Below, one piece after another: positions 3,006-53,818 of a stretch of 64,000 nucleotides of DNA. Below the pieces are notes generated by a model. It was given only the letters and a program-made list of their open reading frames with translations. It had not been told where the DNA came from and made no database searches. The stretch is from Thermodesulfobacteriota bacterium (GTDB lineage Bacteria > Desulfobacterota > BSN033 > WVXP01 > G020346125). The stretch spans positions 1,685 through 65,684 of the forward strand of contig JBGVTJ010000241.1 in the NCBI GenBank assembly GCA_041862515.1, given 5' to 3'. How positions within the stretch are numbered: position 1 is the first letter of the stretch; each line of letters begins with the position of its first letter. A program made the translations under genes and the position numbers.

Positions 3006-4382
3006 ATGGAGAGAGAAAAGGTTGCACCGTTCATAAAGGTTACCCCTCCCGGCCCAAATGCGCGCAAATGGGCTCAATTTCATAAAAAGCATGCCGCTCA
3101 TTCAACGTATTTCTACGATTTTGTTTGGGATCGATCTAAACCAGCCATTGGGCCATTCTGTACGGATGTAGATGGCAATATCATCATGGATTTCGTTAGC
3201 CATGTGGCGAGCTCTCCGCTGGGCTACAACCATCCCGTTCTTGTCGAAACGGCGAAGAAAATCGCCGCAATTGACCCGGATCGATATGCCGGGACCGACT
3301 TCATCGGCGCCTTCGGCGAAGATCCCAGCAACTGTCCCATCCCGACCCCTTCCCACCTCCACCACAAGCTCATGGAGATCTCCCAACAATTCGGTTTCAA
3401 CAGCGCCTTCTTATCCAATTCCGGTGCGGAGGCGGTTGAGAACGCCATCAAGATCTGTTACGACTACCGTCGAAACCATGGATATGGCTTCTGCTTTTAC
3501 GGGGCATTCCACGGACGAACCTTGGGGGCCCTCTCCCTCAATCGGAGCAAGAAGGTTCACCGGGATTGGTATCCCGAAATCCCCAAGATCGTGGAGCTCC
3601 CCTTCTGTCGTTGCCGAAAAGGCTGCGACTGTGGTTGGAAGATATACTCCATCCGAAGGAAAGGCGTGATCAGCCGTCTGGCCCAAGTCCTCGACCCCGA
3701 TATCGGTCTTATCGACCCGGAGGAGGTGGCCTATATCATTATCGAGCCCATCCTGGGTGAAGGAGGATATGATATAGCCAATCCCGAGTTTATCCGGGAA
3801 GTGGCCGAGATTGCTCACCGCGAGGAAATCCCACTGATCGCGGACGAAATCCAATCCGGATTAGGGCGTACGGGAAAGTGGTGGGCTGTGGAACATTTCG
3901 GCGTGGTACCAGACATCATAACCTCTGCCAAGGCCTTGCGGGTGGGCGCTACCATTGGGAAGAGCACGCTCTTTCCCCGAGAGGAGAGGAGGATTTCCTC
4001 GACATGGGGCGAGGGCAATGCCATCAGCTCAGCCGTGGGCTATCAAATCATTCAGACCATCCAGGAAGAGGATTTGCTCAAGAATGCGGAGGAGATGGGA
4101 AACTACTTCCTCGCCGGTTTACGCCAACTCCAATCCCGGTTCCCCGTGATCCACGATGTTCGAGGTCTCGGGCTCATGGACGCCATCTCGGTAGAGACCG
4201 ATGACCTGCGGAACCGAGTGATTCGAAATGCCTTACAAAAGGGGTTACTGGTAACATCGTGCGGGTTCGAATCAATCCGCTTTCTCCCTCCCCTCAACGT
4301 AACCCAGAGGGAGATCGATATCGCCTTGAACATCCTCGAAGATGTCTTTTCAGAAATAGTAACCGAGCCGTCGTTACCATAA
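3006..4382 (+). CDS. Class III PLP-dependent aminotransferase (omega-amino acid / lysine-6 aminotransferase-like)
   Basis: [11 protein letters not shown] motif, PLP lysine in ITSAKAL, 458 aa; RBS GAGGAG. Confidence 0.85.
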
Positions 4383-17767: not shown

Positions 17768-18084
17768 GAGCGAGCATTAAAGAATTTTTGGTAACCATTC
17801 TTAGTGCTTCGATTCGCAAATACAATGACGTATTTTCTAGAGCAAGATCTGAGCAAATGCTCACTCAGCGATAAGTCTTGAGGGCTTCGACTGAGACATG
17901 TCGACGAACTCATGTCGAGTCGCTCAGCCGAAGTCTAAATTTGTTCGTAACCGAACTTATGCATCGAAAGACTTAGTGAAGCGAAACGGTCGCAAAGCCA
18001 TTGTCTGAGCCCAGAGGGGGAGTTTTGGGTTTGCAGTGAAGCGAACCTTACGCTAGAATGATCAAAAATTCTTTTCAGAGAGCG
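17768..18084. repeat. MITE-like dispersed repeat, long copy (family 1: inverted ends ttttggtaaccattct ... agaatg..aaaaa, internal gtgaagcgaa direct repeats)
   Basis: Shares ends and internal blocks with 26895..27091, 50862..51031 and 53107..53176. Confidence 0.5.
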
Positions 18085-26894: not shown

Positions 26895-27091
26895 GAGATC
26901 TCTGAAAAACTGAGAAAAATGAGCTCTGAGCGCGAATTAAGATTTTTTCGGTAACCATTCTGAGTGAAGCGAAACGACCGCAAATTCAATGTTTGAGCCG
27001 AAAAGGCGAGTTTTGAATTTGCAGTGAAGCGAACGTTAGAATGGTTGGAAAAATATTTTGAGCACCGAAGAGCGATCTTTTCAGAGATCTC
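26895..27091. repeat. MITE-like dispersed repeat (family 1), complete copy with outer inverted ends gagatctctgaaaa ... ttttcagagatctc
   Basis: Near-identical reverse complement of 50862..51031. Confidence 0.55.
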
Positions 27092-46471: not shown

Positions 46472-47341
46472 CTAGGAATTTAAATCGAGGGCTTCCTTCA
46501 TCGCCTCAACCATGGAGTAGGAGAGCCTCATATCGCTCGAGCCTACTCCGACGTCTACCTTACCGGCCTCGATGCCGTGATAATCGGAACCCCCGGTGAC
46601 CAGAAGGCCATGTTTTTCGGCAAGGCCCTTATAGAGGGAAATTTGATCCTTGGTATGTTCGGGATAAGAGATTTCAATCCCCATCAGCCCCAATTGGACC
46701 ATTTCGGCAAGCAAGGCATTCAATTGGTGGGCGGATGCGATATGTAAGGTGAATGGGTGGGCCAATACGGGAATCCCCCGCGCTTCCCGTATCAATCCCA
46801 TGGCCTCCTGGGGGTCGAAACGAAACTTGTGAACATAAGCAGGGGCCCCCTTTCCGAGATATCGATCAAAGGCCTCTTGCATGGTATTTACGTATCCCTT
46901 TTTCAACAATACTTGTCCGAAATGGGGTCTCCCGACCTGTCCTCCCCCAGAGGCTTGGAAAACTTCATCATAGCTAATCTCCACGCCCAATTCTCTGAGC
47001 TTTTGCACGATCTTTGGATTTCGTTTGGCCCTCGTTTCCTGGAGCAATGACAACCTCTCGTTTAGACCTTTATTCCCTATATCGATGAAGAACCCCAAAA
47101 TATGCATGCTTCCCAATTCGAATTGCGCGCTGATTTCAACCCCCGGGATAACCTCGAGGCTCAATCTCGCCCCTTCATCCAAGGCTTCTGCATTTCCATC
47201 AATGGTATCGTGATCGGTGATGGCGATGGCTTTCAGCCCTTTTCCCTTCGCATATCGCACAATCCTGGAAGGGGAAAGTACTCCATCAGATGCGGTAGTA
47301 TGGAGGTGGAGATCAACCCTGCCCATTATCCTTTGTTTCAT
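46472..47341 (-). CDS. PHP domain phosphoesterase
   Basis: VDLHLHTTASDG and ITDHDT His motifs. Confidence 0.8.
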   Translation of the reverse strand: MKQRIMGRVDLHLHTTASDGVLSPSRIVRYAKGKGLKAIAITDHDTIDGNAEALDEGARLSLEVIPGVEISAQFELGSMHILGFFIDIGNKGLNERLSLLQETRAKRNPKIVQKLRELGVEISYDEVFQASGGGQVGRPHFGQVLLKKGYVNTMQEAFDRYLGKGAPAYVHKFRFDPQEAMGLIREARGIPVLAHPFTLHIASAHQLNALLAEMVQLGLMGIEISYPEHTKDQISLYKGLAEKHGLLVTGGSDYHGIEAGKVDVGVGSSDMRLSYSMVEAMKEALDLNS

Positions 47342-47541
47342 GTCTCGAAAGGCTCAAAGCGGAGTATCATGACGATTCCCCTTAAGCCCATCTTCAATGG
47401 TATCCCCGCTCTTCTTCAAGACCCAACGGAGATCTCAATACGGCCTCCTCACCCTCGACGGAAGACTTGGTTCAAAAAGGGGTAGACAATTCCCTGATTT
47501 TGTTTTACATAAGACGTAAGGGCATGGATCCAGAGGATGAA

Positions 47542-48342
47542 ATGAACTCCTTAAAGCTTCTCACCCTACGGGCACTCCTCTTGATATTCTTGTCATGGGC
47601 TCTATTGTTATCCTGTAAGGGTCCTTCCATAAAACCCCTTTCGCCCCCCGAGGTAAAAGGGGAGCGATCTCCGAAACGGATTGAGCGAATCATAAATGAA
47701 AGGATCAGATCAATCCGGACCGTTGAAGGCCGTTTAACCATTGTATCGAAAGAGGGGGCACCCCCGGGCACATGTAAGGCACTTTTATTCTTTAAGAGGC
47801 CGAGCCAATTGAGGCTTAAGGGATTCCAAACACCCGGCACTCCCCTTTTCGATCTTCTGATGCAAGTGGGGCTCATCCAAGTTTATATACCGGAACAGAA
47901 TAAGGTTTTCAAGACCGATCTCGGTGAGGGCACGAAAAAACGGGGATTTGGCCTGACGCCTCTCAGTTTAATGAAGGAGATCCTCCAGGTGGGAATCGAT
48001 AAGTCCGAGGAGCTCTCTCTTTCTCAGGGCCAACAGGGTGTAATCGTGCTGAATCACCTGAAGGAGGGGAGGTTGGTGAAGAAGACCGAGATCGATGCCC
48101 GATCGCTTTTCATCAAAAGGGAAACCCTTCTCGGGGCGGGAGAACAACCATACCTCATTACCAGTTACGCCAATTACAAAAACATCGGCGGACAATGGTG
48201 GCCATTCCGCATTGAACTCCATCAACCAATGGGAGGGGAATTCATGTCCTTCGAATTTCAGAGTGTCAGCATGAACGGCCCCATCGAGTCAGATATCTTC
48301 AAGCTCGATGTACCCCCAGGCGTCATAACGGTCCATCAATAA
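47542..48342 (+). CDS. LolA-like / DUF4292-type lipoprotein
   Basis: Lipobox LLSC; beta-rich LolA-like profile; RBS GAGGA precedes the ATG at 47542. Confidence 0.5.
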   Translation: MNSLKLLTLRALLLIFLSWALLLSCKGPSIKPLSPPEVKGERSPKRIERIINERIRSIRTVEGRLTIVSKEGAPPGTCKALLFFKRPSQLRLKGFQTPGTPLFDLLMQVGLIQVYIPEQNKVFKTDLGEGTKKRGFGLTPLSLMKEILQVGIDKSEELSLSQGQQGVIVLNHLKEGRLVKKTEIDARSLFIKRETLLGAGEQPYLITSYANYKNIGGQWWPFRIELHQPMGGEFMSFEFQSVSMNGPIESDIFKLDVPPGVITVHQ

Positions 48343-48547
48343 CCCAGCAACGATCTATCCCTTTACTCCTTCTTTTTTTCTGTAGCCTGCAGCGAATATC
48401 CTCGATGAGGTAGATCCCCGGCTAAATCTCACACTTCTTGACCGCTATAATAACGTCCTGATAGCTCAAAGGGTTCAGCAAATCCAAAATGAATTCAGTG
48501 GCTCCCTCGAAGCCTCATTGGATAGGGGACGCGTATGCGATTTTTCA

Positions 48548-50812
48548 TCACGGGATGTTTTTGCAGAGTGAACCCAACGACCCCTCTTTTTCGTGTTTCT
48601 GGGAGAAATCGACCAATCTACGCAAAAGGCTCATATCATAACCGAAGGGGATAAGTACCTCCTCGGCCGCCTTCAGGAGGAGCTCCGTGTATTTCTCCTC
48701 GTCATATCCATCCTCGGGCCCGATAAGGGGGGCCGCCCTTACCCGATCTTCTTTCACCTTGGATCTCGCATCCCTGATGACATAGGGGACTCTCTCCCCT
48801 GGGTGAATCTGAACCCCGACATCTTCCAATTGCTGGGTTGCCAGGGCGGTGAGGTTGTCTACCTTGTAATCCGAGGGGTCTTGGGAGAGGGTCTTGGAAA
48901 TCACCAGCTCTGAAGGCTCCACCTCGCCGGTTCTCAATTTTAACACGAAATCGAGGAGGACCTCGAAGACTTCGGGGATCTTCGACCGATACCCATCCAC
49001 ATCCTTTGCCCGTGACAATACCTCAAGCATGCTGAGCTGAGCCTCCCTAATCATCGCTGGCATATCGCTTCTCCGAAAGGCCAACCCCCTCGCCTTGATC
49101 TCCCCATCCTCGAATAGGCCGAAGTATCGATTGGCCACGGAAAGCTCCGGCTTGACTCTGGAGGGCAGAAAGACCATCCATCGGTAGATCCCCTCCAAGT
49201 TCATGGGAATTCCCGCCTCTCGGGTAATCTCCTCGCAGAGGACCAGGACTTCCCCTTCGGTGAGGCTATCCTTGCTGATCCATAGGGAATCCGTAATGGC
49301 GTGAATGAGTCGGAAGCCCCTCCTCTCCCCGATCTCCTTAGCTTGAAGCAATTTCTCTCTGCCGAAGGCGGTTACCGCCTCGTGGGCCTCGATCCGCCCG
49401 AAGCGGGCATTACGATACCCTAAGTAGCCAAATGACGTGACGAGTATCCACTTCAGTGCGATATGGCGTCGGCGATAGTTTTCACCCCTCTGCCCTCCCA
49501 TCTTCTTGCTCATTTCCTTCAGCATCCGGCGTCTTCGAAGAATAGGCTTAAGGGTTCTTGGGATCAGTCCCTCCCTCTTCTCGCAGATGTTGTATCCCGC
49601 CTCGGGGACCCTGCTATTGGAACAACAGGCGCAGAGGACGGTCTCTGGGGAGATGTTGTGAACGGCCATAATGGTGGGATACATGGAGGCGAAATCGATC
49701 TCCGCGATATCCTTATGGATCCCCTGGGGAGGTTGAAAGACCAACCCGCCTTTATCCGCAACTAAGAGGTCCCATGCCGTCTTGAATTTCTCGGGTTCGC
49801 CCTTTCGCCATGGGATGAGAATCCCTTCGCCAAAGGCACGATCCAACTGCATCGAGGTGATAATCGTTCCGGGGGAGGTTCTCGCCGTTCGTTGGACGGG
49901 GACTTTGGAAAGTCTAGCCAAATCGATGATCCCCTCAAACCCCGATTCCCCGAAGAGAAAGGAGTTTGCTCGATCGATATGCCATCTCCCAAAGAGGGGG
50001 TAGGCCGGGCTATGGTAAAGGATACGGCCGTAGGAGAAATAAGAGCGCCCCTTCAGGTCGGGAATTCGGTGGACGAGACCTGGCTCCCGGTCCAGGATCA
50101 GGGGGATCTTTTCCCTCCGACTCATCCTGACCGAAGAGGGGACGATGTGGGAATCACCGTGTTCGGTGAGAATCACATCCGGGTCAAACCTCTCCAGAAG
50201 GGCGTTGATCTGGAGTGGCACGTCGGAGGGCAATTGGGGATCGATCTCCAACCGGTATCCCTCACATTCCACTACCAGAGTATTCCCCCGCCCGAAGGGG
50301 AGCAGGGGATTTCCCTCTATGCGGATCTCCATGATCCGAAGGGGAGGGAGGGTGTACTCGATCTCCCAAGAGGAGCATCGGGGTTCTATCCTCAGGACAC
50401 GGCCATCTTCATGCTCCACCCAGCAGCGTCCCGTGGGAAAGAGGCCTTTCTCATAGAGATAAGATTGGGCCAGGGGGATGTCGCAGTTATAGAAGGTGAT
50501 CCGATCCTCGAAACCCGCCAGCAGCCTAAAAAGTCCGGGCACATGGTCGGAGGATCCCATCTCCAGATCCAGTACATCCATCTCCTGCCCGCTCCAGAAG
50601 TCCTGCTTCCGAGCCCATCCGAATCCGAGAAGGAGCCGCCGCTTCCTTAGCAAGCGCAAAAGTTCCTCTAGGTCTTCTTTCCGGCCTCGGGCGTAAATGT
50701 GATGTCGATAGGGGTCCTCTAACCGGAGCATCCCGCCGTTATCACCATAGATCCACAGGACCATGGCCGACTGCCACGGATAGACATCGAAAAGCCAACC
50801 CTCGGTTTCCAT
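48548..50812 (-). CDS. polB: Family B DNA polymerase (archaeal-PolB/Pol II-like) with degenerate 3'-5' exonuclease motifs
   Basis: Motif A DFASMYPTIM (DxxSLYPS), motif B KWILVTSFGYLG (KxxxNSxYG), motif C HAITDS (YGDTDS-like, first Asp absent); N-terminal domain resembles archaeal PolB; the expected Exo I FDIET reads MEIRIE and Exo II reads TEHGDSH. Confidence 0.8.
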   Translation of the reverse strand: METEGWLFDVYPWQSAMVLWIYGDNGGMLRLEDPYRHHIYARGRKEDLEELLRLLRKRRLLLGFGWARKQDFWSGQEMDVLDLEMGSSDHVPGLFRLLAGFEDRITFYNCDIPLAQSYLYEKGLFPTGRCWVEHEDGRVLRIEPRCSSWEIEYTLPPLRIMEIRIEGNPLLPFGRGNTLVVECEGYRLEIDPQLPSDVPLQINALLERFDPDVILTEHGDSHIVPSSVRMSRREKIPLILDREPGLVHRIPDLKGRSYFSYGRILYHSPAYPLFGRWHIDRANSFLFGESGFEGIIDLARLSKVPVQRTARTSPGTIITSMQLDRAFGEGILIPWRKGEPEKFKTAWDLLVADKGGLVFQPPQGIHKDIAEIDFASMYPTIMAVHNISPETVLCACCSNSRVPEAGYNICEKREGLIPRTLKPILRRRRMLKEMSKKMGGQRGENYRRRHIALKWILVTSFGYLGYRNARFGRIEAHEAVTAFGREKLLQAKEIGERRGFRLIHAITDSLWISKDSLTEGEVLVLCEEITREAGIPMNLEGIYRWMVFLPSRVKPELSVANRYFGLFEDGEIKARGLAFRRSDMPAMIREAQLSMLEVLSRAKDVDGYRSKIPEVFEVLLDFVLKLRTGEVEPSELVISKTLSQDPSDYKVDNLTALATQQLEDVGVQIHPGERVPYVIRDARSKVKEDRVRAAPLIGPEDGYDEEKYTELLLKAAEEVLIPFGYDMSLLRRLVDFSQKHEKEGSLGSLCKNIP

Positions 50813-50861
50813 GCTCCCACGGAGAGTTTGATCTCCACTCCGGTTACGGTTTATACCTTAT

Positions 50862-51031
50862 GAGATCTCTGAAAAAGTCGCTCTTCGCTGCTCAAAATAT
50901 TTTTCCGACCATTCTAGAGTTCGCTTCACTGCAAATCCAAAACTCGCCCTTTGGGCTCAGCCATTGGATTTGCGGCCGTTTCGCTTCACTAAGAATGGTT
51001 ACCGAAAAAATCTTTAATTCGCGCTCAGAGC
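50862..51031. repeat. MITE-like dispersed repeat (family 1), inverted copy between the 119-aa ORF and polB
   Basis: Reverse complement of 26895..27091 with a few substitutions. Confidence 0.55.
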
Positions 51032-51118
51032 TTCCTTTTCCAGTTTTCCAGGAATCCCCAACTTTGAACTTTGACATTGACTCTCGTGTTCGGGTTTCGT
51101 GTCCGTGTCCGTTATAAG

Positions 51119-51478
51119 TTATTTGTCATTTGGATTTTGAACTTTGACATTTCCCTTTTCGCCTCTCCCCTCTGACCTCAAACGCCTTTCGCCTTTCTCT
51201 GATGGAGAGGCTGTCTTGCCCGCCTCCTCCTCCATCCTCTTACACTTTGCCCTGAGCTCCTCCAATGCCTTATGGTGCTCTAACAGGATGGAAATCAGTA
51301 TCGCCTCCAGGGGCCAGGGACGGGAGGCGTAGACCCCCGCCTGCACGTGGAGGCGCGCCAGGTCAAAGAGACGATCGAAGGCCTTCTGATCCTCCTTTCT
51401 CAATCCTCGGCGAAACTTCTTCCACTCGGTGTATTCCCGTTCCAAAACCTGGCTATAGGGGAGAACCGTCCTACCCAC
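51119..51478 (-). CDS. Hypothetical helical protein (119 aa) in the lexA cassette
   Basis: Start overlaps the upstream ImuA-like gene by 8 nt (operon-style coupling); no family recognised. Confidence 0.45.
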   Translation of the reverse strand: MGRTVLPYSQVLEREYTEWKKFRRGLRKEDQKAFDRLFDLARLHVQAGVYASRPWPLEAILISILLEHHKALEELRAKCKRMEEEAGKTASPSEKGERRLRSEGRGEKGNVKVQNPNDK

Positions 51479-52190
51479 CGATATGCCCCCTCTTGCCCAA
51501 ACCCCTCAGCGGAAGTCGCTGAGATCTCAGAAGCTTCCCCCCTCCTTCCGTTCTCAACGGTCTCTCCAAAACCAGCTTCAATCTCCCTCCCTCCCTCATC
51601 GTCCTCACGACCATGTCCGACCAACGGGAGAGTCGTCTCAAGAGATATCCCCTGCGGCTTCTGGAAGGAACAGGGGGTTGCATCAAAAGAAAGGGAAGTC
51701 CCCTCGGGTTGAGCTCATCGAGTTTCGCGAGCATTCCCCGGAAAAGGAGATTCACCTCCTGCTCGGGAATATCCTCATCGAGCAGCGTAGTGATGGGACC
51801 AAGCAGGATGACCAATGGATTTTGATGGGAGTCTATCATCGCTTCCAACCGTTCTCGAACCAAGGTGAAGAGTTGATAGCAGGTAAAGGCCCTGGCAACG
51901 ACGATCTCCTTGAGGAGATGAGCGGGAGCCAGGCAATGTCTCCTCGCAAAACGGGAGACGATATAGGGGTCAAAGCCGTTTGCCCCGTCCACGAAGATCG
52001 GCTTCATCCCCGATGCCGCCACAAGGCCGGCCAGATAGGAAGACAAAACCACTGTTCCTTCCCCCCAGAAGAGGGTCTTCGCGAAGGGCGTACGGGAATG
52101 ATTCCATTCTCCCAAGCCCAGGAGATCGAAGACGTTGATCCCGCCAAACCGCTCGGGCAGACTGTGCGACTCTTCCCTTTCCCCTTTCAC
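51471..52190 (-). CDS. ImuA/SulA-like inactivated RecA-fold protein
   Basis: RadA/RecA core pattern (KPIFVDGANGFDPYIVSRFARRHCLAPAHLLKEIVVARAFTCYQLF...LVILLGPITTLLDED) but the Walker A position reads GEGTVVLS (no GKT/S); 6 nt downstream of lexA. Confidence 0.5.
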   Translation of the reverse strand: MKGEREESHSLPERFGGINVFDLLGLGEWNHSRTPFAKTLFWGEGTVVLSSYLAGLVAASGMKPIFVDGANGFDPYIVSRFARRHCLAPAHLLKEIVVARAFTCYQLFTLVRERLEAMIDSHQNPLVILLGPITTLLDEDIPEQEVNLLFRGMLAKLDELNPRGLPFLLMQPPVPSRSRRGYLLRRLSRWSDMVVRTMREGGRLKLVLERPLRTEGGGKLLRSQRLPLRGLGKRGHIGG

Positions 52191-52196
52191 CCTGCC

Positions 52197-52808
52197 TCAT
52201 ACCCTCCTGAAGATCCCGATGACCTTACCCAGAATTTGAAAACCCCTGTCCCCCTCCCTCACCGTAACCGCCTCCCATGCCTCGTTGTCTGGTTTGAGGA
52301 GCACCTCGTCCCCTTTGAGAAAGAATCGTTTCACCGTTGCCTCGTCATCGATCAGGGCGACGATCACATCGCCGTTATCGGCGGAGGGTTGACAGCGAAT
52401 CAAGACGTAATCTCCCGGGAGAATATAGGGAGACATGCTCTCCCCCTTCGCCCGCAACAAGAAGACCTCTTTCCCCTCTGCCCAATCCCGTGCTAAGGGA
52501 ACGACTTCCTCGATATTTTCCACGGCCAGGGTAGGTTTTCCGGCCGCCACCCTTCCCAAGACGGGAACCTCGCGAATGGAAATCCCAGGCCTCCTTCCGG
52601 TGAAATCCAGGATCTCGATGCCACGGGATTTGGTTTGCCTCCGCCTCAGGTATCCCTTCCTTTCCAGGGCTTTGAGGTGATCGAAGGCTGCCCTGGGATA
52701 GATGTCGAAATACCGGCCGATCTCCCTCACGGAGGGAGGGTAACCGCTTTCCAGGGTGAACTCCTTTACGAAATCCAGAATCTCTCTCTGCCGAGGGGTT
52801 AGATTCAT
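52197..52808 (-). CDS. lexA: LexA repressor (S24 peptidase with N-terminal wHTH)
   Basis: REILDFV...PPSVREIG HTH; cleavage and catalytic motifs VAAG, GESM (Ser), VKRF (Lys); start at the ATG at 52808 with RBS GGAGG. Confidence 0.9.
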   Translation of the reverse strand: MNLTPRQREILDFVKEFTLESGYPPSVREIGRYFDIYPRAAFDHLKALERKGYLRRRQTKSRGIEILDFTGRRPGISIREVPVLGRVAAGKPTLAVENIEEVVPLARDWAEGKEVFLLRAKGESMSPYILPGDYVLIRCQPSADNGDVIVALIDDEATVKRFFLKGDEVLLKPDNEAWEAVTVREGDRGFQILGKVIGIFRRV

Positions 52809-52835
52809 TGCTTTTCCTCCCTTTTCCCCAAAGAT

Positions 52836-52853
52836 ACTATACATATGTTTAGT
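52836..52853. promoter_or_regulatory. Candidate LexA operator (SOS box): 16/18 palindrome ACTATACATATGTTTAGT, Cheo-box-like core ACATATGT
   Basis: Lies 28-45 nt upstream of the lexA ATG; palindromicity read directly from the sequence. Confidence 0.4.
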
Positions 52854-53048
52854 TGTCAAGGGAAAAATTTAGTGGACTTTCCCCAACATTTTGGGAGGTG
52901 GTGAGGTAAGTTATTGAAAAACAATGATAAACAAATAAAAAGAAGTGGAAATGGAGGTTTCTCCTATGGTAGAGGAGTTTCTGAAGCTTCCTGAGATTTA
53001 CAAGGAGTATTTTTGTAACTTGGTGATCATATGGCAAATTTTACTTTT

Positions 53049-53282
53049 CATAAGTGAACACCGTTGTCCCCTCGGTTGCTCACGGTCTGTTGCCTTAATT
53101 TCCTTTCGCTCACTGAAAAGAATTGTGGACAATTCTAGAGTTCGCTTCACTAAGAATGGTTAACCAAAATTCTTTCATGTTCCCTCCAGGGAACCAGGGC
53201 AACGGCCTGTTTCGACGTTACCCTTCTCAAGCAAATTTGGCTCATGGACAACGCTGTTCGCCCAGAAACTCAGGAAACTCCT
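53049..53282 (+). repeat. Chimeric element C: terminal-helix ends of structured-element family 2 (same ends as the 55681..55910 copy) enclosing a fragment of MITE family 1 (53107..53176)
   Basis: 5' cataagtgaacaccgttgtccc and 3' ggacaacgctgttcgcccagaaactcaggaaactcc match the ends of copy B; the core differs. Confidence 0.4.
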
Positions 53283-53392
53283 GAAAGCGTTTCACTTGAC
53301 AGAGTGAAATAAAATCTGGTATGTGGTTTCTCGGTTGAAAACCTTTCCATTATCGAACCATAATGCATGAGATCCAATGGAGGAACGGTATT

Positions 53393-53818
53393 ATGTTTAA
53401 GAGCATCTTGGTACCTCTGGATGGGTCGGAAGTCGCCGAGACCATCCTTCCCTATGTGGAAGATTTGGCGGCTACCCACAAGGCGAGGATCGTTCTGCTT
53501 CGAGTTGCCCTGGCTCACACCCTCCCCGGACAAGACGAGATAAAGGCTGAGGTTGAGGCGATCCGTGAAGCTGAGGAATACCTCAAGGGGGTTGAGGAAA
53601 GGTTGAAAAAGAAGGACTTCGACGTAGAATCCCACGTGAGGTATGGTAAGGGGGCTGAGGAAATCATTGATTTCTGCCAGGAACCCAATATCGATGCCAT
53701 CGCCATGTTCACCCATGGGCGAACTGGAATAGGCAGGTGGTTGTTGGGGAGCGTGGCGGAAAAAGTAGTTCGGCATTGCCCCATACCGACCCTGCTTTTC
53801 CGGCCGAAAGGGCAATAG
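53393..53818 (+). CDS. Universal stress protein (UspA family)
   Basis: ILVPLDGSE start, the HGRTG.GR...GSVAEKV ATP-binding motif; RBS GGAGG precedes the ATG at 53393. Confidence 0.8.
   Translation: MFKSILVPLDGSEVAETILPYVEDLAATHKARIVLLRVALAHTLPGQDEIKAEVEAIREAEEYLKGVEERLKKKDFDVESHVRYGKGAEEIIDFCQEPNIDAIAMFTHGRTGIGRWLLGSVAEKVVRHCPIPTLLFRPKGQ

Follow-up and report, generated by a model that had tools for sequence, protein, structure and literature searches.

What kind of enzyme is encoded by a lexA-linked bacterial polymerase gene in which the proofreading motifs appear to be inactivated and the catalytic motif C lacks its first aspartate, and should such an enzyme still be able to synthesize DNA? 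This question is raised by a gene, here termed polB2, on contig JBGVTJ010000241.1 of the Thermodesulfobacteriota assembly GCA_041862515.1. We analyzed the 64,000-nucleotide stretch of this contig that extends from position 1,685 to 65,684 of the forward strand (the window, whose own coordinates are used throughout). In all probability, polB2 belongs to the bacterial PolB2 (G2) family of B-family DNA polymerases and is the last gene of an operon in the order of lexA, iRadA, PPB2 and polB2. The host is best explained as an uncultured Thermodesulfobacteriota/Syntrophobacterales-like bacterium.

PolB2 was previously linked to an inactivated radA gene and to arCOG07300, and lexA was found in the same predicted operon in some bacteria, such as Leptospirillum ferriphilum (Makarova 2014, PMC4104785). 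The bacterial group G2 is nested in the archaeal group B2, and its members share an Exo I motif that is not conserved, a missing Exo III motif, a single aspartate in motif C and a D(K/R) motif (Kazlauskas 2020, PMC7544198). The two partner proteins were named iRadA and PPB2, and a PolB2:iRadA:PPB2(3) heteropentamer was modelled (Timinskas 2025, PMC11791011). The MGRT arm of PPB2, the fixed bacterial gene order of iRadA-PPB2-PolB2, the enrichment of lexA and the parallel with Pol zeta were also reported there (PMC11791011). In a 2026 survey, G2/PolB2 is counted among the standard bacterial groups and its exonuclease domain is described as inactivated (PMC12926913).

The polB2 gene and its operon partners

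The open reading frame list and its translation place exactly one intact open reading frame of 754 amino acids at 48548..50812 on the reverse strand. Its product matched the Pfam family DNA_pol_B (E = 2e-32, residues 308-691) and, over its full length, the NCBIfam models NF004416 (E = 3e-125) and NF004418 (E = 2e-112), which describe short archaeal "type B" polymerases and were scored at 376-419 bits. The AlphaFold2 model, for which 75 family representatives were used as input, had a mean predicted local distance difference test score (pLDDT) of 94.5 and a predicted template modelling score of 0.92. With Foldseek it was superposed over its full length on the B-family polymerases (PolB) of 9N, KOD and P. 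abyssi with template modelling scores of 0.73-0.74 at ~21% identity. The family alignment used below consists of these 75 sequences, which are representatives clustered at 50% identity and are each 32-58% identical to the polB2 query.

The D(K/R) motif of polB2 is D353-K354, which lies inside the sequence ADKGG; the aspartate was found in 75/75 and the lysine or arginine in 68/75 of the family sequences. The motif is separated from motif C by 153 residues, compared to 148 residues in S. islandicus (PMC11791011), and it ends a conserved segment, ILIPWRKGEPEKFKTAWDLLVADKGG (residues 331-356; 49745..49822, reverse strand), whose equivalent touches iRadA and the N-terminal arm of PPB2 in the published models (PMC11791011). 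A PolB2 catalogued in that study is 56% identical to the window protein across its first 405 residues (PMC11791011), and metagenomes contain a homologue of equal length that is 99% identical. Judged by its sequence, the locus thus carries every feature by which PolB2 is recognized.

The three genes upstream of polB2 are all encoded on the reverse strand. The first, lexA (52197..52808), probably starts with the ATG at 52808 (MNLTPRQ...), ahead of which is the sequence GGGAGGA; the maximal open reading frame extends back to a TTG at 52859, which is within the promoter. The product scored 200.8 bits with TIGR00498 (cut-off 110.95) and matched both LexA_DNA_bind and Peptidase_S24 of Pfam. By inspection, the strings VAAG, GESM and VKRF in its translation were assigned to the Ala-Gly cleavage site and the Ser/Lys dyad. 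The second gene, iRadA (51471..52190), starts 6 nucleotides after the lexA stop codon and encodes a RadA/Rad51-like core of only 239 amino acids that lacks both the N-terminal domain and the ATPase motifs. It matched Rad51 of Pfam (3.4e-5) and, weakly, the RadA/Dmc1 model of NCBIfam, and a profile of 13 iRadA members matched the structures of P. furiosus RadA at 2.8e-7. When mapped by inspection, its P-loop position reads GEGTVVLSS with no GK[ST], while its Walker B position reads LVILLGP, in which G131 is invariant; the Walker motifs are likewise missing in 12 iRadA relatives.

The third gene, PPB2 (51119..51478), has a GTG start, overlaps the end of iRadA by 8 nucleotides and encodes a helical, arCOG07300-like protein of 119 amino acids. 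It had no match in Pfam or NCBIfam. Its N-terminus reads MGRTVLP, of which MGRTV is invariant in 16/16 sequences. In a single-sequence AlphaFold2 model (pLDDT 74.6), PPB2 has helices at residues 8-22, 28-46 and 57-88, which are preceded by a free N-terminal arm and followed by a disordered tail. The order of lexA, iRadA, PPB2 and polB2 was found in 13/13 loci with enough upstream DNA among the 18 related genome loci identified by tblastn, which come from metagenome-assembled genomes of Thermodesulfobacteriota, Syntrophobacterales and Syntrophaceae and from one NC10 metagenome-assembled genome.

Compared to its relatives L001 and L002, whose proteins are ~91% identical, the overall ratio of nonsynonymous to synonymous substitution rates (dN/dS) of polB2 is 0.15-0.17, so that its reading frame is under purifying selection; for the exonuclease remnant the ratio is 0.07-0.09. 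These low values show that the remnant is strongly constrained, as would be consistent with a structural or partner-binding role. Given the intact reading frame and its dN/dS, we rejected the possibility that polB2 is a pseudogene or the remnant of a recent transfer. That it is the polymerase of a mobile element was also rejected, given its housekeeping-like neighbors and the synteny kept in close relatives. Downstream of polB2 (46472-48342) are genes for a PHP-domain phosphoesterase (3',5'-nucleoside bisphosphate phosphatase / RNase RNM-like) and a DUF4292/LolB-like protein, and both are kept in all close relatives with downstream sequence (L001, L002, L004 and L018). This synteny points to a stable position in the chromosome and away from a mobile element.

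The lexA promoter and the spacer upstream of polB2

Immediately upstream of lexA is a promoter-like site, TTGACA and TATCTT separated by 17 nucleotides (52831..52859, reverse strand; 10/12 matches in the scan). The spacer between its -35 and -10 elements is filled by an 18-nucleotide near-palindrome, ACTAAACATATGTATAGT (52836..52853, reverse strand), which occurs once in the window and is a putative LexA operator. In the window, and likewise in each of the 12/12 related loci with upstream DNA, the pattern TTGACA-ACT-N12-AGT-A has a single occurrence, which lies upstream of lexA. The palindrome has two variants. The first, ACTAAACA[T/A]ATGTATAGT, is found in the window, L001, L002, L006, L008 and L014, and the second, ACTCATCAAATGATGAGT, in L007, L009-L013 and L017. 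Both half-sites change between the variants and dyad symmetry is retained. The variant follows the similarity of each LexA to that of the window, which is ~60-92% for the first variant and 48-52% for the second. A search of the window and the related loci did not reveal either type a second time.

In the related loci the promoter and operator were found at positions 4291 (L001), 4254 (L002), 164 (L006), 140 (L007), 3775 (L008), 3256 (L009), 4336 (L010), 3797 (L011), 4074 (L012), 4335 (L013), 3859 (L014) and 4224 (L017). The lexA promoter is near-identical among operons whose proteins are only 46-60% identical. In four loci, it lies 190-325 nucleotides ahead of the lexA start, compared to 22-78 nucleotides in the others. 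A long leader may be present in these four loci (L007, 165-489; L008, 3800-3992; L009, 3281-3591; L011, 3822-4079), or else a small open reading frame that has escaped annotation.

There is good comparative evidence that the conserved palindrome is an autoregulated LexA operator, which we nonetheless treat as putative. The structure of the operon and this operator-like palindrome together suggest that the whole cassette is under the control of LexA, and the conserved promoter and operator provide a concrete handle on its SOS control. It is possible, although we hold it only tentatively, that the ACT-N12-AGT palindrome, in its two forms, is a LexA operator not described before that accompanies the PolB2 cassette. 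A literal search of the searchable literature for the operator strings returned only irrelevant matches and no description of them, which is not proof of novelty. If true, an undescribed operator would point to cassette-dedicated, co-evolving pairs of LexA and operator in Thermodesulfobacteriota and NC10.

The spacer between PPB2 and polB2 is 306 nucleotides long in the window and ~75 nucleotides long in the close relatives L001 and L002. A palindromic repeat, dispersed over the window, has one copy inserted here (50860..51050, reverse strand), and this copy does not belong to the ancestral operon. The repeat is ~130-190 nucleotides in size, intergenic and palindromic, with terminal inverted repeats of ACCATTCT...AGAATGGT. 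Other full copies are at ~17950-18075 and ~26930-27075 on the forward strand and a partial copy is at ~53120-53165 on the reverse strand; the 11-mer AGTGAAGCGAA occurs 7 times in the window, where 0.03 occurrences would be expected. As RNA, the spacer copy was predicted to fold into one long hairpin (-72.3 kcal/mol, z = -6.2). The repeat had no match in Rfam, which found nothing in 48000..53600. It may be a miniature inverted-repeat transposable element or an element like the repetitive extragenic palindromes.

PPB2 is also longer in the window, with 119 amino acids compared to 91-96 amino acids in L001 and L002. The extra C-terminal tail (51119-51200), for which disorder is predicted, is encoded just upstream of the inserted repeat. 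The PPB2 stop codon may have been moved by the insertion or by another change close by.

The hairpin bears on the explanation that best survives as an alternative, to which we nevertheless give only a small chance: that polB2 encodes a functional PolB2 that is not effectively controlled by LexA here, either because the hairpin terminates or processes the transcript or because the palindrome binds another regulator. The long spacer with its hairpin of -72 kcal/mol, where close relatives have ~75 nucleotides, would fit this explanation, as would the lack of a second operator upstream of polB2. However, the scan of the spacer between PPB2 and polB2 revealed neither a promoter-like nor a terminator-like site, polB2 is intact and 90-92% identical to its relatives without an insertion at this site, and the same repeat family is found at other intergenic places in the window. 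Expression of polB2 from an operon under putative LexA control is the interpretation that we prefer.

The exonuclease and polymerase sites

For residue mapping, the query and E. coli Pol II were both aligned to the profile of the 75-member family, and the exonuclease residues of Pol II (D156/E158/D229/Y331/D335) were taken from the supplement of PMC11791011. Of these five residues, four are absent from polB2: D156 of Exo I is replaced by R164, D229 of Exo II by I223 and D335 of Exo III by G291, and Y331 of Exo III has no counterpart. Only E158 of Exo I is kept, as E166. A reading of this DNA from its sequence alone (the sequence-only reading) had proposed that catalytic carboxylates were replaced in both Exo I, aligned to MEIRIE, and Exo II, aligned to TEHGDSH, and had recommended a structure-guided alignment; the profile alignment with Pol II and the AlphaFold2 model confirm the loss of exonuclease residues. 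For Exo I its register was right, with the aspartate being the only one of the two residues that is replaced. For Exo II the catalytic aspartate is indeed lost; the string, however, was one residue out of register, and the equivalent of the aspartate is I223, which follows it.

The Exo I remnant PPLRIMEIRIEG (residues 156-167; 50312..50347, reverse strand) pairs with PPLKWVSIDIET of Pol II in the profile alignment, and positions 164 and 166 are variable across the 75 family sequences. The Exo II remnant DPDVILTEHGDSHIVP (residues 210-225; 50138..50185, reverse strand) has H218 instead of the asparagine in addition to I223. Position 223 is Leu, Ile or Val in 61/75 of the sequences (L35/I22/V4/D4), and DPD and GD are conserved nearby. 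In the model, the exonuclease domain is composed, in order, of strands 160-166, 178-183 and 186-190, helix 197-209, strand 213-217 and helix 219-234. Because this order fits a DnaQ-like fold, Exo I was placed on strand 160-166. The Exo III helix is absent from the model, in which there are ~18 residues between the conserved GRWHID strand and the next helix; Exo III is thus deleted altogether rather than merely mutated. We take GRWHID to correspond to the conserved GRIHFD strand of archaeal PolBs, such as that of P. furiosus.

Intact DxE or YxxxD motifs elsewhere in the N-terminal domain would have contradicted the proposed loss of proofreading, and no such relocated motif was seen among the conserved acidic residues. 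The near-invariant ones in the N-terminal half are D9, D111, D210, D212, D220 and D280, which we read as ordinary non-catalytic conserved positions of archaeal PolBs. A hand alignment offered D280 as the Exo III aspartate; this was rejected, given that the Exo III helix is deleted and GRWHID matches the GRIHFD strand.

An alternative Exo I at LRIEP (residues 140-144) came from pairwise phmmer and from the family profile aligned to P. abyssi PolB. It was rejected and IRIEG (residues 163-167) was kept, because the Pol II profile alignment and the strand order of the model agree. With HMMER, comparison to Thermococcales PolB structures misplaces Exo I by ~23 residues (polB2 residues 129-167; window 50312-50428). 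The misplacement is attributed to residues 129-144, which in the AlphaFold2 model make up a hairpin preceding the exonuclease domain, a hairpin that polB2 has in common with E. coli Pol II. Pfu-type enzymes presumably have no equivalent of this hairpin. Automated motif calls in the PolB2 family should therefore be treated with caution.

That the product is a B-family polymerase with recognizable motifs A and B and with the aspartate of TDS in motif C, as the sequence-only reading had it, was borne out by the Pfam match and by the mapping to Pol II. In motif A, EIDFASMYPTIM (49667..49702, reverse strand), the catalytic D373 corresponds to D419 of Pol II and is found in 75/75 of the family sequences; in motif B, KWILVTSFGYLGY (49415..49453, reverse strand), K454 corresponds to K493 and is found in 74/75. 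Motif C, HAITDS (49286..49303, reverse strand), reads H504-A-I506-T-D508 and is of the HxxxD type that was defined for PolB2, in which a histidine replaces the tyrosine, the first aspartate is replaced and the second is kept (PMC8764526, PMC11791011). H504 is found in 73/75 of the sequences. The first aspartate, the absence of which had already been pointed out, corresponds to D545 of Pol II and is replaced by I506, a position at which aspartate was never found in the 75 sequences, while the second, D547 of Pol II, is kept as D508 in 75/75. An identical HAITDSLWI motif C is found in the published LexA-iRadA-PPB2-PolB2 operons of Thermodesulfobacteriota, Syntrophaceae, Deltaproteobacteria and NC10 (PMC11791011 supplement).

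Inteins interrupt motif B near query residue 460 in three PolB2-family homologues (P0129, P0174 and P0143). Intein_splicing of Pfam matched all three and LAGLIDADG_3 matched P0129 and P0174; other family matches run to 900-1300 amino acids.

The missing aspartate led the sequence-only reading to question polymerase competence itself. A second alternative, which we judge slightly less probable still than the loss of LexA control, is that the protein has no catalytic activity and serves as a polymerase-like scaffold that binds only DNA or partner proteins, following the 2008 idea of an inactivated PolB. I506 and the destroyed exonuclease site would both be expected of such a scaffold, and the PolB2 family was originally described as inactivated (PMC2527604, PMC4104785). 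However, 75 diverse representatives all have D373 and D508, and nearly all have K454, Y378 and P379, which would be unexpected for a dead site. The Dpo2 enzymes of S. islandicus and S. solfataricus have the same HxxxD motif C and show robust polymerization, which matches the activity of the replicase in primer extension, with no detectable exonuclease activity (PMC8764526). Primer-independent PolBs without the same aspartate are active too (PMC7544198). By homology with Dpo2, the doubt about polymerase competence is largely answered, and a working PolB2 remains our preferred explanation.

The least probable explanation is a LexA-controlled, accurate and proofreading orthologue of E. coli Pol II that acts in replication restart. 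It would fit a bacterial, B-family and LexA-linked enzyme that can be aligned well to Pol II in its N-terminal and Exo I region. Sequence features already refute it. The NCBIfam Pol II equivalog models NF004421, NF004422 and NF004420 (cut-offs 570, 1103 and 1435) scored only 56, 27 and 24 bits, far below these cut-offs and below the scores of the short type-B models from archaea. Of the five exonuclease residues four are gone, as is the first motif C aspartate, and the adjoining iRadA and PPB2 genes are absent from the polB neighborhood of E. coli K-12.

A mechanism can be proposed by homology. In an undamaged cell, LexA bound to the palindromic operator, which separates the -35 from the -10 element of the lexA promoter, would keep the expression of all four genes low. 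DNA damage would lead to RecA-stimulated self-cleavage of LexA and to transcription of the operon. PolB2 would then form a complex with a single, inactive RadA-like subunit and a trimer of PPB2, in which one MGRT arm would reach towards the active site; both putative interface elements, the polB2 segment 331-356 and the MGRT arm, are recognizable in the translated proteins. With a working polymerase center (D373, D508 and K454) and no proofreading, the complex should extend mismatched or lesion-opposed primer ends, so that replication could resume at the cost of mutations. The sequence features, the fold, the gene order and the conservation of promoter and operator are observed in our analysis, and from these and by homology we infer LexA binding, complex formation, catalytic activity and a role as an extender for the proteins of the window. 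The sequence-only reading had anticipated an exonuclease-deficient, LexA-linked, Pol zeta-like enzyme, which is supported by the family assignment. Its term "error-prone" needs nuance, as Dpo2 is accurate on undamaged DNA, extends mismatched and lesion-opposed termini efficiently (PMC8764526) and is mainly an extender.

Several points weigh against this interpretation. The hairpin repeat of ~190 nucleotides could attenuate polB2 expression or uncouple it from the operon. To our knowledge, the palindrome is unlike any known LexA box. A QLxLF-like beta-clamp-binding motif is not conserved in the C-termini of iRadA and PolB2 in this clade; the sequence SQRLPLRGL in the iRadA of the window is common to L002, not to L001, and a clamp-binding motif at the C-terminus of iRadA or PolB2 is known in only a fraction of PolB2-system members. 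The functional statements are transferred from the Sulfolobus enzymes, with which only family-level motifs are in common, and no experimental study of a bacterial PolB2 was found in the searchable literature.

Comparison with known systems

The closest known system is the bacterial PolB2 (G2) mutasome operon, to which the window locus is similar in gene order, the upstream lexA, the HAITDS motif C, the D(K/R) motif, the lost catalytic residues of Exo I and Exo II, the missing Exo III, the MGRT arm and an iRadA without ATPase motifs. The differences are local and not essential: there is a hairpin repeat between PPB2 and polB2, the tail of PPB2 is longer, and no clamp-binding motif could be recognized. 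Archaeal PolB2, the Dpo2 of Sulfolobus, belongs to the same family and has the same change in motif C, the same loss of proofreading and two partner genes (PMC7390963, PMC8764526), and its expression is damage-inducible (Feng 2020, PMC7390963; Feng 2022, PMC8764526). Dpo2 is, however, much smaller, its exonuclease domain is more decayed, its operon has the order of PPB2-PolB2-iRadA and its neighborhoods are enriched in orc1/cdc6 rather than in lexA. Unlike the bacterial enzymes, Dpo2 has been characterized both biochemically and genetically.

Eukaryotic Pol zeta (Rev3 with Rev7, Pol31 and Pol32) is likewise a damage-linked B-family polymerase of several subunits, whose exonuclease domain is inactivated and which extends DNA beyond lesions, and its functional analogy to PolB2 has already been drawn (PMC11791011). 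It is not an orthologue; it has other accessory subunits, lacks partners similar to RadA or PPB2 and carries a metal-binding domain at its C-terminus. E. coli Pol II (polB) is similar in being a bacterial B-family polymerase of the SOS regulon with extender behavior, and differs in that it consists of one subunit, has the motif C DTD, retains an active DEDDy exonuclease and belongs to another PolB clade. The lexA-linked imuA-imuB-dnaE2 cassette follows the same logic as the PolB2 cassette. The Pol V mutasome (UmuD'2C-RecA) is also a LexA-controlled cassette, with a specialized polymerase, a RecA-family partner and a small protein whose N-terminal arm is near the active site (PMC11791011). The polymerases of Pol V and of imuA-imuB-dnaE2 are of families Y and C rather than B, and their accessory proteins are unrelated.

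The PolB2 family, its dead proofreading site, its partners, its link to lexA and the analogy to Pol zeta have thus all been described before, and the published table of operons includes this lineage. There is no novelty in the polymerase as such, and the locus is an ordinary but clean and intact example of the bacterial PolB2 cassette. What it adds to the known systems is small: a conserved lexA promoter, the palindromic operator of which has two variants that follow the LexA lineage, and a hairpin repeat between PPB2 and polB2.

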